Shown here one piece after another: positions 41,798 to 63,990 of a stretch of DNA of 64,000 nucleotides. The notes under the pieces are model-generated. The model searched no databases and was not told the DNA's origin. It worked only from the letters and a program-made list of their open reading frames with translations. Origin of the DNA: a virus (Duplodnaviria; Caudoviricetes). Numbering within the stretch: the stretch's first letter is position 1; every line of letters starts with the position of its first letter. The stretch is taken from positions 2,185 through 66,184 of the IMG/VR virus record IMGVR_UViG_2974753385_000001; one strand, 5' to 3'. The position numbers and the translations under genes are program-made.

Positions 41798-44700
41798 GGT
41801 TCCTCCAATTCGATGATCTCGACGGTCTCTGCCTGGATGCTGGGGCCGTGGCCGTCGCGCGAGATGCCGACGACATGGACGGCGGTGTTGCCGTCGACGG
41901 CCGCGAGCTCGTCGGCCAGAGCGGGGTACATCCACCGGCTGACGTAGAGGTGAACCTCGATCCCCTCGGCGTCCTCGGCGATGACGGTGGCCTTCGTCGA
42001 CAGCTCCGGCCGCTCGGTCTTGGCCTTCAGCGCCTCGATCGACTCGCCGGTGCGCTTACGCAAGCCCTCGAAGTGGTCCTTGACCTTGACCTCGCGGATC
42101 AGGCCGATGAACACCACCTTCTCGTCGACGCATTCGAGGAGCAGGCTCGACGGGGTGTTGCCGCCGAGCAGTCCGATCTCCCCGTTCTCGATCGCCTGTT
42201 CGATGGTCTGCACGGCGCGCGCGGCCTTGTTGATGCCGAACGGGTCGGCCGAGGCGGTCAGCGCCTTGATCCGTTCGACGGTCTTCGCGCCGAGGCCCGG
42301 CACCCCGCGGGACGGCTCGTCCGGTTTGGTCTTGCGACCCTTCTTCGGGGCCACGTAACGCATGTCGTCCCAGTCGTGAAGGAGCGCCTTGAAATTGACG
42401 CCCTTCTCCGGCGGAGGTCCGATCTCGCGATCGCGCCACTCGACCATCTTCTGTCCGACCTTCTCGGCGACGCCGTCGATCTGGGTGAACCCCGCTCGGA
42501 TGGAGGGGCCGCTGGTGACCGGCTCCCAGGTCAGGCCGGACATGGCAAGGTCCGGCGCGAGGATCGAGAACCCGTGCGCGGCGGCGTCCTTCAGCAACGA
42601 GAGCTGCTGGTCCTTGTCGGCCCCGCGCAGCGCCGCAGCGTAGAAGTACTTCGGGTGGTAGTGCTTCAGCCATGCCAGCCAGTACCCGACGACGGCGTAG
42701 CAGACCGCGTGCGCGATGTTGAACAGGTAGCTCGACGAGGCGGCCATGTAGTCCCAGAGCTCCCGAGCATCGTCCTCGGGCATCCCGATCTCGCTCTTCA
42801 TGCCGTCGCGGAACTCCTCCCAGAACGCCTCGAAGGCCCCGCCCTGCTTCTTCTTTCCGATGATGCGCCGGAGCTGGCTGACCCGGTCGCCGGGCATTCC
42901 GGCCACGCGACCCATGCCCATCACCTGCTCCTGGTAGACCAGGCAACCGTTGGTCGACTGCAACACCGCGTTGACCGCGGGGTAGCCCCAGTCGCGAGGC
43001 TCCTCCTGGCCGAGCTCGACGGCCTCGTAGTGCGAGGTCTGGCCGGAGATGAGCGCGCCAGGACGCGAGAGGGCGTTGATGTCGGCGAGATGGCGGAACT
43101 CGAAGTCGGTCTGTCCGGCGAGCTTGTTCACGATCCCGCGGGTGGTCCGACCGTCGAACTGGAAGATGCCGGTCAGGTCGCCGGTACCGAACACGCTTTC
43201 GAGCACCTCGACGTCGTCGAGCGGGAGCGCGTAGAGCTCCTCGAAGGTCATGCCGATCCAGTCGAGGCAGTCGTGGATGAGCCTCATCGTCTTCAGCCCG
43301 AGGATGTCGAGCTTCAGCATTCCGAGGTACTCGGCGTCGCGCTTGTCGTAGGAGATCCCGCGGCGGGTGACGCCGTCCTTGGCTACGGTGTAGACCGCGC
43401 AGGTGTCGGCGATCGGCTGGGTCGAGATGACCAGCCCCGCGGCGTGGATGCCCATGCCGCGGTAGTCGCCCTCGATCGCCATCGCCATCTTCAGGTCGGG
43501 ATACTTCTCGACGATCTGGCGGGCCCGCTCGAAGGTGCCGATCGCATCAGCGACCGAGTAGTTCTCGCGGGGGTCGCCGTCGTCGCGGTCGACGATGAGC
43601 TCCTTCAGCTCGTAGACCTCGCTGAAGTCGGCGAGCTCGTGCGCGCGAGCAGTGTCCTGGACCGCAGTGCGGCCGCGGTAGCGCATGTAGTTGGCGATGT
43701 GCGCGGTCTTATCGGCCCCGTACTTGCCCTGCGCGTAGGCAAAGACGGCCTTCGGGTCCTCGAAGTCGATGTCAATGTCGGGGTCGTCCGGCCGCGACGG
43801 GTCGATGAACCGCTCGAACTGCATGAGCGGGAACTGCATCGGGTCGATCTCGGTGATCCGCAGGAGGTAGCAGAGCAGCGATCCGGCGGCCGAGCCGCGG
43901 CCGGGGCCGACACCCATCTTCGCGACGTCCTTGGCCCACCGCACCAGGTCGGCGGTGACCAGGAAGTAGTCGCAGAACCCCTTCGGCTCGATGATGGAGA
44001 ACTCGTAGTGGATCCGCTCCAAGTAGGCGTCGGTGTCGATGTCCCACCGCTGCGCGAAGCCAGGGTTGGTCTCGGCGCGGAACTCGATCCCCTCGTTGAT
44101 CCACTTCTTCAGCCGGTCGGCCGCCGACATCTGCGGGCCCCGCTCGATGTAGATGACCCGCTCCGACTTCGGCAGCTCGACGTTGCAGCGATCGGCGATC
44201 TCGCGCGCACCGCGGACGGCGGCGTCCCCCTCCGCGTCGCTGAGCAGGCAGTCGGCCAGCTTGCGCAGGCACTCCTCGTCGGACTCGGGGTAGGTCAGCC
44301 GGACGTCGTACTCCCAGTCGGCGTCCTGCGTCGCCACGGTGCCTCCGCGGTGCGCCGCGTGCAGCATTCGTTGGACGACGTTCTGGTCGGGGTGCGGGTA
44401 GTGGACGTCGGCGGTCGCCACCAGCGGGATGCCCTCGGCGGCCGACACGTCGGCGAAGAACTGGTTGAGCAGGACCGCGCGATCGAGCTCGGGGAACATC
44501 TGCGCTTCGAGGTAGAACCGGTCGCCGTAGCACTTCTGGAACTTCGCGATCAGCGCGCGGGTCTCGTCGACGCTTTCGTCGGTCCAGTCTTCGCGCCGGT
44601 CGCCGAGGCTCTTGCCGCCCAACAGCGTGCAGGAGATCCACGAGTCCGCGCACCCACTGGTGACGATGAGGCCTTCGGTGAGCTCGGGGTCGAGGATCTG

Positions 44701-53092: not shown

Positions 53093-53559
53093 CGGGGTAC
53101 CTCCGACTGCGTGCCGTGGTTCTGGTTGTCGACGAGCCGATCCTCGGTGACGAAGGTCTGGTCGAGGATCACGTCGCGACCGTAGATGGTGACCAGGTCG
53201 TAGTGCCGGAACGAGTACTCCTCGACCGCTCCCGCGCCGACATTCACGTGGATCTCGTTACCGTCCATGCTGATCTGACGCAGCTCGGCGATCACGATCT
53301 TCACCGACATCCCGTCGCCTCCGAACCTCTTCGGGAACCGGATGTATCGGCCGATGTCGCGGGCCATCAACTCACAGGCGTAGACCTGGACGGCGCTGTC
53401 GCCGAGTGAATGAGCGGGCTCCTCGCGAGCGACCCAGCCACTCTGAGACACCGTCGCCGCGGTGAAAGTGGCCGTGTCGTTCTTCGGCAGGTTATCCATC
53501 ATGTTGAGTTCGTCGGCCATCCGGTCGCGGTCGGCCTTCTTGGTAGCGGGCATGGTCAT
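53089..53559 (-). CDS. hypothetical protein
   Basis: ATGA coupling; ORF track. Confidence 0.75.
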   Translation of the reverse strand: MTMPATKKADRDRMADELNMMDNLPKNDTATFTAATVSQSGWVAREEPAHSLGDSAVQVYACELMARDIGRYIRFPKRFGGDGMSVKIVIAELRQISMDGNEIHVNVGAGAVEEYSFRHYDLVTIYGRDVILDQTFVTEDRLVDNQNHGTQSEVPR

Positions 53560-54506
53560 CCAATCTTCGTGACGCGGGCGAGGGCAACGGAACGGAAGCC
53601 GCCGCCGATTTCGAGGAAGTGCAGGATGCGGAGATCCTCGCCGAACTCGACGGGGTCGAACTCCGCGGGAGTGATGTGCGGCGGGTGCTTGCCGCCGTTG
53701 GCATCGACTACGGCGCGGTCGAGCGCGCCGGACAACGAGTTGCGCCAGACTACCTCGACCTTGCCCTTCGCCAGCTTGGTGAGGATCTCGGCGTTCGACA
53801 GTTCGCTGGCGACCTTCGACCAGTTGCGATCGGGGTTGGCCTGCTGGCCGCGGACCGCGGCATAGGTGCCCTGCTGCGACCAGGTCGCGTGCTCGGCGTC
53901 CTTCGGCTTGGCCTTCTCCGCGGCGGCCTTGTGCCCTAGCGCCTCGGCGGCCACCACCGCTTCGTCGGCCTTCGGCCCGGTGCCGTAGAACTCCGACACC
54001 GTCTGGTCGGCAGGATGGGCGGCACTATCGCTGCCCGTATGGGCGGCACTGTCGTCGCTGTCCGTATGGGCGGCACTGGTGGGCGGCACAGCGTCGCTCT
54101 CCTGCTGGTGGGCGGCACTATGGGCGGCACTGGTGGGCGGCACTGGGGGCGCGTCGGCGGCCCGCTCGCTGTCCTCGGCCCCGCTCGGCTGCGGCTTGAC
54201 GTGGAAGTCGTTCTCGATCGCCTCGCGCACGTCGCCGGACTCGGGGTCGAGCACCTTCTGCGCGCCGATGACGTCGACGTAGGTGACCTGGTCGCTGTCG
54301 GTGTCGGGGTCGATCGCATAGAACGCGCGGATCTCCTCTGCGCCCCACTCGTTGCCCAGGTCGCGCCGCAGCGTGACGAAGGCGAACTTCTTGTTGGCTC
54401 GGGGAGCCTTGGGGGCGACCCAGCCGTACTGCTCGGCGTGAGCAGTTATCTGCTTCGCCATGTCGAGGGCTTCGGCCTTCGCCTCTGCGAACTCTTCTGG
54501 TGTCAT
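53556..54506 (-). CDS. hypothetical protein with internal DNA repeats; first gene of the leftward arm
   Basis: SD GAGGAGG; SAAH/VPPT repeats. Confidence 0.85.
   Translation of the reverse strand: MTPEEFAEAKAEALDMAKQITAHAEQYGWVAPKAPRANKKFAFVTLRRDLGNEWGAEEIRAFYAIDPDTDSDQVTYVDVIGAQKVLDPESGDVREAIENDFHVKPQPSGAEDSERAADAPPVPPTSAAHSAAHQQESDAVPPTSAAHTDSDDSAAHTGSDSAAHPADQTVSEFYGTGPKADEAVVAAEALGHKAAAEKAKPKDAEHATWSQQGTYAAVRGQQANPDRNWSKVASELSNAEILTKLAKGKVEVVWRNSLSGALDRAVVDANGGKHPPHITPAEFDPVEFGEDLRILHFLEIGGGFRSVALARVTKIG
54016..54143. repeat. 7 copies of TGGGCGGCAC
   Basis: Starts at 54016, 54040, 54067, 54080, 54109, 54121, 54134. Confidence 0.9.
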
Positions 54507-54532
54507 GCTTCCTCCTCGGTTGAAACTCTCAA

Positions 54533-54578
54533 ATCCTAATCAGAACAACGGAACTGGTCATATTCGGCTTATTCGGCT
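54533..54578 (-). promoter_or_regulatory. leftward promoter ATGACC-N17-TAGGAT preceded by tandem TATTCGGCT x2
   Basis: -10 at 54533-54538, -35 at 54556-54561, direct repeats 54561-54578. Confidence 0.5.
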
Positions 54579-54593
54579 AGTACCCGCGTACCG

Positions 54594-54665
54594 CCCGGCT
54601 CCCGCGTCCGGCCCGGCCCCGGCCCCGGCTCCCGCGTCCGGCTCCGCGCTCGACCCCGGCTCCCG
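54594..54665 (+). repeat. GC-rich direct repeats CCCGGCTCCCGCGTCCGGC x2 plus a partial third copy
   Basis: Starts at 54594, 54624, 54655. Confidence 0.8.
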
Positions 54666-54674
54666 TGCGCGCCC

Positions 54675-54732
54675 TCGAACGCCCGTTCGACCGCCCTCGG
54701 TCGAACATCCGTTCGACCGAACCTCTGTTCGA
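54675..54732. promoter_or_regulatory. three LexA (SOS) box matches, TCGAAC-N4-GTTCGA
   Basis: Perfect at 54675-54690 and 54701-54716; one mismatch at 54717-54732. Confidence 0.7.
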
Positions 54733-55076
54733 TCCGGTGTCACTCTCGCCCGGCCGGTTGACCCGTTCGCGCTGTGCCGCGCGATCGCCGTGGTGACACC
54801 GTCGGCGCGCTCTCTCTCTGTCGCCGTGGTCGGCCGGGTGCCTTCACCCGGTGCGCGTAACCCTCGCGCTCTGACCGTGTCCCGCTGTTCTGTTCTCAAT
54901 CTGCATATGGCTTGCGCCGTTGCCAACACTGTACGGGTTGATCGCTAACCGATGCAAGTCCAATGTTGGGCGTGTCCCCCGCGGCCGGTCATCGGTGCCG
55001 GTCTCCCCCGCGAGGGGTGCGCGATCGCTCGCGCCGTTGCGGCCGACTGTACGCGACTCTCACGGTTGACGCCAAC

Positions 55077-55106
55077 TAGACAACTAGGCGAGATCTCGCC
55101 TACTGT
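55077..55106 (+). promoter_or_regulatory. promoter TAGACA-N18-TACTGT containing 18-bp palindrome TAGGCGAGATCTCGCCTA; GTTGACGCCAAC just upstream (55065-55076)
   Basis: Direct reading; precedes the RBS GAAAGGATC at 55143. Confidence 0.6.
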
Positions 55107-55156
55107 GACCCTCAACCGGCCGCACACGGCGACCGGCACACCGAAAGGATCTCCCC

Positions 55157-55948
55157 ATGACAACGACACCGTTCAACGTCCGCGAGCTCACCGGCGACGA
55201 TGCCGCGCAGTACCTCGACAACCGGCCGCGTATGCGCGCTTTCCACGTCGACGGCCGCGGAGTGTCGGGACCGTTCACCGCGCAGACGATGCTCACCCCG
55301 TACGGTGCGCCGGTTCATCGTCCGATCGACCCGGCGACCGGGACCAACTCCGACGCGGATCGACCGGTCGCGAGCTATCCCGGTTTCGTGTTCGAGTTTG
55401 GTCCGATGGTCGTCGGTACCTACGTCAACACACACGACGACGCGCAGCGGCACCCGTACCCGTTCACCGTGAACGGCCGCGAGTACCGACGTCTCACCGT
55501 GCGCGCCGACTTCCATCCGATCGACGTCGCCGAGTCGGCCGACTTTTACGGGGTCAAGCGCGCACACTCGGCGAACGGTTACACCCTCGCGCAAGCACGC
55601 ACTCACTGTGAGTACAGCGGCGAAGTGATCGCGTCGCCGGTCCCCGGCACCGACGGTGAAGGACACACCGGTATCTACGTCGTCGACGTGCGTGACTATG
55701 ACGTCACCGACGCGGCACGCCGGACGCTGCGCCGGTTGGTCTCGCACGTCATCGCGACGACGTACCTCGGCGACGCTGACCACCATGACGAGATGCTCGA
55801 CCTCATCGCCCGCGACATCCGCGCCGACATCGTCGTCGCTGATGAGATCTCGACCCGTTGGCAGCGTGAGTCGGCGCGTCTCCAGAACCTCGCCGTTGCT
55901 GCGCGCACCACGGCCGTTCGCAACCCGATTGCGTCGGTGATCGCATGA
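55157..55948 (+). CDS. early-array protein 1, unknown function
   Basis: GAAAGGATC RBS; 1 Lys in 263 aa. Confidence 0.85.
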   Translation: MTTTPFNVRELTGDDAAQYLDNRPRMRAFHVDGRGVSGPFTAQTMLTPYGAPVHRPIDPATGTNSDADRPVASYPGFVFEFGPMVVGTYVNTHDDAQRHPYPFTVNGREYRRLTVRADFHPIDVAESADFYGVKRAHSANGYTLAQARTHCEYSGEVIASPVPGTDGEGHTGIYVVDVRDYDVTDAARRTLRRLVSHVIATTYLGDADHHDEMLDLIARDIRADIVVADEISTRWQRESARLQNLAVAARTTAVRNPIASVIA

Positions 55949-63370: not shown

Positions 63371-63600
63371 GAAAATTGAAAAACTCATAATTCCTCATGA
63401 GGAATCGCATTTTCTTCATATCGAATAATTGTTCGATATGTATAAACAATGGGATAGATATATGGCTATGGGTAGGGGTCCTATATAGGGGTGAATATGG
63501 CACATATACATATATATGTATATTGCATATTATTTATTGGAATAATTATTTGATATTTGAATTATCAATTTGTTTTTGTTTGTGTCAATCATGACAACTC
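63371..63600. other. AT-rich (~29% GC) palindrome-dense island near the right end
   Basis: 66 G+C in 230 nt by hand count; several perfect palindromes and a LexA-like box at 63421-63436. Confidence 0.9.
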
Positions 63601-63990
63601 ATGAGAGGAAAGCGAAGGGTGAGAGTGATCAGAGTTGCGGATATGCGCGGCGAGATCGAACGTCGTCGAGAGGCTGCGCGTCGTGTGAGTAGCGGCGAAG
63701 GGTGCGAAGGGTGCGAAGTGATCAGGTGCGCAGCGATCGACGCGGCCGCGGTGATCGGGTGCGCGGCGAGGTTTGCGAGGGTGCGCCGAACGGGGTGTGC
63801 GTTGCGGCCGCTGTACGCGCCGTGTGCGCGTCGAGATCTCGCCGGGTGTGCCGAGGTGCGAGCGTGCGTTATCGGGTGTGAGCAGCGAAAACAGCGGCAC
63901 GCATGGCCTCGCGGGTGGCGCAGGGACCCGCACGGCGCGAAGCGTCGGGTGGGGGGTGTCACCCCTCCCCCGGCCGTCCGGCCGGGGGCC

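Follow-up and report, generated by a model that had tools for sequence, protein, structure and literature searches.

Three tandem 16-bp palindromes that match the LexA operator lie ahead of the replication genes of an actinophage of the lytic type, and a cluster of such boxes occurs at the equivalent position in every phage of the subfamily Emilbogenvirinae that we examined. The conservation of the boxes across genera with variable spacers, the presence of the same motif at lexA and recA of Gordonia, and the lack of a LexA-like protein in the phage bear out their identification as LexA/SOS boxes, which an earlier note had proposed from the DNA sequence. On this comparison, the reading of the phage boxes as operators for host LexA is well supported. 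We further lean, by a small balance, towards the view that these operators are kept by selection and would make the expression of the leftward replication genes SOS-dependent.

The window analyzed here is a stretch of 64,000 nucleotides, bases 2185–66184 of a phage genome of 66,184 bp with 99% completeness. The closest named relative is Gordonia phage Marietta (~93% identical), which is classified in the Zierdtviridae, Emilbogenvirinae, genus Sukkupivirus, and belongs to the SEA-PHAGES ‘Cluster CS’ group. A divergent region of 650 bp (54507–55156) houses the three-box cluster. The leftward operon starts with a gene for a 316-aa protein, followed by genes for a WhiB-like protein, an SNF2 helicase, a Cas4-type exonuclease and a Sak4-like annealing protein; it also encodes a DnaE-like polymerase, a RuvC-like resolvase and a primase/polymerase. 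Rightward of the divergent region runs a series of small genes without assigned function, the first at 55157–55948. The boxes and the gene that they precede are as follows.

54675–54690, no strand: SOS box 1, TCGAAC-gccc-GTTCGA, 0 mismatches, perfect consensus; kept in all relatives examined.

54701–54716, no strand: SOS box 2, TCGAAC-atcc-GTTCGA, 0 mismatches; core of a 22-bp palindrome at 54698–54719.

54717–54732, no strand: SOS box 3, CCGAAC-ctct-GTTCGA, 1 mismatch; abuts box 2.

53556–54506, minus strand: first gene of the leftward operon, encoding the 316-aa protein, function unassigned (phrog_12059).

The lack of an integrase and of an immunity repressor, which had been remarked on for the window, holds for the complete genome. 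No tyrosine or serine integrase was found across the whole 66,184 bp, a six-frame search of the same sequence gave no match to the LexA DNA-binding domain or to the S24 peptidase domain (Peptidase_S24), and the annotation of Marietta has neither integrase nor repressor among its entries. A relative, GTE8, has been described as obligately lytic (PMC4524720).

The three clustered boxes, and a fourth near the right end of the genome, were all found where the earlier note had placed them, box 2 within its palindrome. Each of the three is a 16-bp TCGAAC-N4-GTTCGA inverted repeat within the limit of one or two mismatches, and boxes 2 and 3 are spaced 16 bp from centre to centre, a distance that recurs in every relative with several boxes. 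The 8-base core GAAC-N4-GTTC alone is not significantly over-represented in the window, where 3 were found against 1.08 expected. For the full 12-base motif the expected numbers are 0.002 perfect sites and 0.08 sites with at most one mismatch, and five were seen. Three-site clusters are expected by chance at 1.25e-10, and none of 60 block shuffles brought two sites within 60 bp of each other. The three-box array is strongly non-random. Small ORFs that have been annotated over the boxes (IDyn 73, NadineRae 77 and others) were rejected on account of their inconsistent annotation among relatives and frequent indels.

Conservation in relatives had been named beforehand as a check, and it was found throughout the subfamily. 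We compared the same region in 14 GenBank relatives and in further IMG/VR copies, and the box cluster is present in every Emilbogenvirinae phage examined (at least 20 phages from at least six genera). Its position is constant, 135–230 bp upstream of the start codon of the first gene in the leftward operon. Three or four boxes each are found in Sukkupivirus, Foxborovirus, Kablunavirus, Skysandvirus and the GRU1/Flapper-like genus, and Pleakley has a single perfect box 186 bp upstream. No box occurs at the equivalent site in more distant Zierdtviridae, the Rhodococcus and Nocardia phages Polyyuki, NC1 and ChewyVIII, which retain GTAC repeats near the start codon.

Among the 44 distinct boxes collected from these genera (at least six), no variation is seen at positions 2–5, 12, 14 and 15, and next to none at positions 1, 11, 13 and 16. 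C, A and T all occur at position 6, T predominates at position 10, and the other positions of the N4 spacer are free. Fixed half-sites around a free spacer are the pattern that a protein-binding site under purifying selection would be predicted to leave. Some phages carry additional boxes inside the same operon. Patio has an extra perfect box some 25 bp before the SNF2 helicase gene starts (L013 778–793), and other Skysandvirus and GRU1-like phages have one at the equivalent junction of the helicase and WhiB-like genes (L176 3680; L170 1879; L175 2172). The extra perfect box of Marietta precedes the Sak4-like gene and lies at the 5' end of gene 67 (L001 3553–3566). Both kinds of operon-internal box are absent from the phage of the window.

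The motif had been equated with the mycobacterial LexA consensus, and this agrees with the literature: TCGAAC(N4)GTTCGA was defined as the consensus for the LexA protein of Mycobacterium tuberculosis, in which a three-box site is bound by LexA (PMC3381160). Host loci closer to the phage were reached through a conserved rpoB pattern, in Gordonia caeni and in Rhodococcus; a search of bacterial genomes with the phage DnaE-like protein as query had found no relative. The host-genus test genome was that of G. caeni (4 Mb), and the isolation host of the phages is G. terrae. The G. caeni genome contains 2 sites that are perfect and 27 with one mismatch, compared with 4 for the reversed control. One-mismatch boxes stand some 55 bp ahead of the lexA start codon and between the -35 and -10 elements of recA. 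The divergent region of lexA in Rhodococcus baikonurensis (L140 1167–1262) holds an abutting pair of boxes (16 bp) and, at a distance of 64 bp, a third; the geometry of the phage boxes thus has a host counterpart. In both hosts, G. caeni and R. baikonurensis, the SOS boxes overlap core promoter elements. We found no published account of LexA boxes, LexA binding or damage-inducible expression in these phages.

The surroundings of the phage boxes are different. A strict scan for promoters and terminators found nothing, and the promoter candidates among the elements below come from a relaxed scan combined with phylogenetic footprinting and are consensus matches only.

54533–54561, minus strand: proximal leftward promoter-like element, ATGACC-17-TAGGAT, 26 nt from the ATG; Sukkupivirus only.

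54580–54592, no strand: GTAC-N4-GTAC direct repeats, also present in relatives without boxes.

54596–54670, no strand: very GC-rich repeat spacer from the GTAC repeats to box 1, unalignable between genera.

54767–54784, no strand: conserved hairpin with a 6-bp stem and compensatory changes in Skysandvirus.

54928–54957, minus strand: distal leftward promoter-like element, TTGCAT-18-TACAGT, scored as TTGCGA-18-TACAGT in Foxborovirus.

55046–55075, minus strand: distal leftward promoter-like element, TTGGCG-18-TACAGT, in 11 of 15 phages and most genera.

55077–55106, plus strand: rightward early promoter-like element, TAGACA-18-TACTGT; the first rightward gene starts 50 nt downstream.

The boxes neither overlap a sigma-A-like promoter nor directly follow one. 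The nearest promoter-like elements on either side are at least 114 bp off, in keeping with the distance of more than 100 bp that had been given before. Measured from the predicted start of the element at 54928–54957, the boxes fall at about +197 to +239. Conserved leader blocks, including GC hairpins, occupy 54750–54900 between the distal elements and the boxes. These conserved blocks, and hairpins with compensatory changes, suggest that the box interval is part of a long transcribed leader. The compensatory base changes in the hairpin at 54767–54784 are seen in Patio, Float294 and Lollipop1437, and in Kablunavirus (Outis, Kabluna, Bonum) another leader hairpin is replaced by one of different sequence.

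Two further elements of the region can be described in their own right. The divergent promoter-like elements meet, at 55046–55106, in a palindromic TTGACGCCAA element (TTGACGTCAA in Kablunavirus), which provides the -35 of the leftward element at 55046–55075; both divergent elements have TAC(A/T)GT hexamers as their -10. The GTAC direct repeats upstream of the first leftward gene are a family-wide feature, with more than 15 copies in the box-less Rhodococcus phage ChewyVIII (L185 982–1609). They are probably sites for a phage protein; the C-terminal part of the 316-aa protein, a conserved domain, may be what binds them.

From the sites themselves, their conservation and their sequence identity to the SOS box of the host, together with the lack of a LexA-like phage protein, we infer the occupancy by LexA, the promoters, a roadblock mechanism and the direction of its effect as follows. 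The boxes would be high-affinity operators for the LexA of the host, Gordonia, within the untranslated stretch that controls the leftward early operon, downstream of predicted, conserved sigma-A-type leftward promoters (about +200 to +350) and some 150–200 bp upstream of both the proximal promoter and the first start codon. Without DNA damage, the array would carry three or four LexA dimers, and at the abutting 16-bp pair neighbours would lie on opposite sides of the helix. As a roadblock or barrier, LexA on the boxes would damp or block transcription into the operon. Once LexA is cleaved during the SOS response, or titrated by the multiplying phage genomes, the operon would be fully expressed, and the dosage and timing of the replication genes would then track the DNA-damage state of the host. 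These phages form plaques on undamaged hosts, so any repression would have to be partial or transient. We found no well-described precedent for a LexA elongation roadblock 200–350 nt into a leader. A more far-reaching version is speculative and rather unlikely: a virulent phage with a copy-number switch, in which LexA would curb the operon, leaky replication would titrate LexA, and positive feedback would produce a burst together with damage-free induction of the host SOS response. If it were true, the damage repressor of the host would serve as a timer of the lytic programme.

The earlier note had offered two functions, gating by the SOS state and titration of LexA, and either or both may apply. 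It had preferred a decoy or looping role for the boxes on the strength of their distance from promoters, a preference for which we found no specific support. The decoy idea can be put as a LexA sponge, in which replicating phage DNA soaks up LexA and derepresses the host SOS regulon without damage, any effect on phage genes being secondary. Each genome would contribute three or four perfect sites, and some hundred copies or more would let phage sites outnumber the roughly 30 mostly imperfect sites of the host; derepression would bring a division block, recombination and repair functions, and prophage induction. The quality of the sites is in line with such a role, those of the phage being perfect or near-perfect while the host lexA and recA boxes each have a mismatch and only 2 perfect sites occur in 4 Mb; so are the lack of a promoter overlapping the boxes and, in some genera, the presence of boxes elsewhere, in the AT island or the interior of the operon. 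A sponge, however, would leave unexplained why the place of the cluster with respect to the leftward operon is the same in every genus and why the additional boxes lie in or next to that same operon instead of being scattered. The lone box of Pleakley would make a poor sponge, and the gain from inducing the host SOS response is doubtful for a phage that has its own recombination and replication enzymes. We consider a sponge unlikely as the main role. The fixed position of the cluster, the leftward promoter-like elements upstream of it and the extra perfect boxes in the operon favour regulation in cis.

The palindromes might instead be bound by a phage-encoded regulator, initiator or LexA competitor, their likeness to SOS boxes being mimicry or coincidence. 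One candidate is the 316-aa protein, which is 52–61% identical between genera and lacks a recognisable fold: its N-terminal 200 residues are confined to box-carrying phages, and only its C-terminal ~110 residues are common to Rhodococcus and Nocardia phages. Its AlphaFold model is poor (pLDDT 41), and neither a PDB profile search nor the protein Atlas gave relatives. The centre of the protein is a VPPTSAAH/SAAH repeat array that is conserved at the protein level across genera, and the DNA decamer repeat at 54016–54143 is therefore also coding. A second candidate, a 153-aa protein with a helix–turn–helix (HTH) of the MerR/excisionase type, shows 41–72% identity among the phages that have boxes. 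It is encoded in Maselop too, whose relative Polyyuki was the one scanned and has no box. A neighbouring protein of 156 aa is absent from IDyn. Neither the HTH protein nor the 156-aa protein tracks the boxes in both presence and sequence, as a cognate phage DNA-binding protein should, and no LexA-type or other recognisable DNA-binding domain was found that correlates with the boxes. There is a model for a phage LexA homologue with a role of its own, gp6 of the Bacillus phage GIL01, which is reported to activate its late lytic promoter (PMC6182141). Yet the chance that an independent palindrome would match the LexA hexamer with N4 spacing is about 1 in 4096, and an unrelated viral contig of 49% GC shows a similar four-box array. 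The 316-aa and HTH proteins diverge to 41–58% identity whereas the half-sites are invariant, and a phage-encoded binder seems quite improbable. An operator that stays unchanged while the phage candidates diverge points to an external, conserved binder; host LexA would very probably be that binder, and the simplest account of the invariant boxes.

That the boxes act as nucleic-acid structures, either tandem 6-bp hairpins in a leader RNA or cruciforms near a replication origin, is highly improbable: every box can fold into a 6-bp stem with a 4-nt loop, the conserved hairpins with compensatory changes nearby indicate a leader that is probably structured, and the adjacent gene has repeats that had been read as iterons, but the box stems are invariant and show no covariation, the frequent changes to A or T at position 6, where position 11 is still G, weaken the pair without compensation, an Rfam search of 54300–55300 returned no family, and the identity with the host SOS box would be left unexplained.

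Host-LexA control of the leftward operon, as preferred here, can be compared with several known systems. One is the actinobacterial control region of the lexA/Rv2719c type, which like the phage has the 16-bp motif, several boxes within 100 bp and an abutting 16-bp pair. The host boxes are imperfect and overlap the core promoters of SOS genes. Those of the phage match the consensus perfectly or nearly so, keep a distance of over 100 bp from promoter-like elements and stand ahead of replication genes. Tandem or overlapping LexA boxes are also known from colicin operons and from lexA and recN of Escherichia coli, where adjacent dimers repress tightly and relief comes late. Those boxes overlap the promoter, use the proteobacterial motif and belong to plasmid or host genes, whereas the array of the window belongs to a lytic phage. 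Mobile elements that use host LexA directly as an SOS sensor include CTXphi, at its promoter PrstA, and coliphage 186, at tum. Unlike the conserved array of this lytic-type phage, they have single sites at promoters and are temperate phages or control antirepressor genes.

The tectivirus GIL01 of Bacillus thuringiensis provides a partial precedent. Its host LexA sites dinBox1 and dinBox1b lie downstream of the start of promoter P1, which drives the replication genes (PMC4551915). GIL01 has no CI-type repressor, and its host LexA sites are adjacent. In the phage of the window no repressor or integrase was found and the boxes stand ahead of the replication operon, but at a long distance from any promoter-like element, and the likeness may be only partial. 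The GIL01 system reads the SOS state (PMC4551915; PMC6182141), and the same is proposed for the phage of the window. GIL01 differs in being a temperate linear plasmid prophage that needs the co-factor gp7 and the LexA-like gp6, whereas the phage studied here has no lysogeny genes, three or four full consensus boxes and a far greater distance to the promoter. No counterpart of the LexA homologue gp6 was found in its six frames, and a small protein like gp7 has no searchable family.

Independent arrays were sought by scanning IMG/VR for tandem boxes, which recovered the subfamily as well as unrelated metagenomic contigs. In the viral contig of 49% GC mentioned above (L171 2000–2300, also L169), four SOS-type boxes with different spacers follow each other at 16-18-16 bp. 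Their order is three or four 24-bp direct repeats, the four boxes, a TATATT -10 and an early-like gene start, and the boxes are non-coding. This contig may represent an independent LexA-box array. A viral contig of 35% GC (L180 530–760) has a non-coding stretch full of CGAACATATGTTCG, the Firmicutes-type LexA consensus, along with GAACATATG repeats. A different class was set aside. In the high-GC contig L227 (3100–3280), boxes recur with a 21-bp period inside a long ORF and are read as EQLF/EHLF heptad repeats; L197, L204, L209 and L214, which like L227 have five to nine boxes at a 21-bp period, were discounted by this shared spacing. ORFs with heptad repeats would be a class of false positives for searches of LexA arrays.

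The fourth box of the window lies towards the right genome end, at the following place.

63421–63436, no strand: SOS-like box 4, TCGAAT-aatt-GTTCGA, 1 mismatch, at the edge of the AT-rich island of the right end.

As had been claimed, it falls inside an AT island (~38% GC); it is about 580 bp from the right genome end and next to a TATAAA hexamer. Its generality is another matter. The box is kept, with one mismatch, in two genera only, Sukkupivirus and the GRU1/Flapper-like genus. In Marietta the mismatch is the mirror image (position 11, not position 6), and in the GRU1-like genus a one-mismatch box sits at the edge of that genus's own AT island. None was found in the AT islands of four other phages. 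Box 4 may be a second LexA site, and on this distribution it is not a general part of the system in the subfamily. The AT-rich island (63371–63605), with about 29–38% GC in a genome of 66% GC, is itself a candidate for an origin or an end-proximal control region. It contains several palindromes, TAGGGGT repeats and the motif CCTATATAGG, and islands near the right end in other genera share the motifs TAGGGGTCCTATATAGGGGT and TTGAAACGTTTCAA. Two stray one-mismatch sites are probably incidental: one at 42188–42203 is coding sequence inside the DnaE-like gene (also in Marietta and Outis), and one at genome bases 6–21, at the extreme left end outside the window, has two mismatches in Marietta.

The direct use of host LexA by phages is known already, and has been documented for temperate elements as a trigger of induction. 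What is new here is a conserved, multi-operator LexA array of consensus grade in a subfamily of lytic-type actinophages that has no lysogeny apparatus. The hosts and many of the phages are in hand in the Gordonia terrae SEA-PHAGES collection, which makes the idea directly testable. If it is true, virulent phages would also read or manipulate the SOS state of their host, and this could bear on burst timing, on the synergy between antibiotics and phages, and on interactions between phages and prophages in Actinobacteria.
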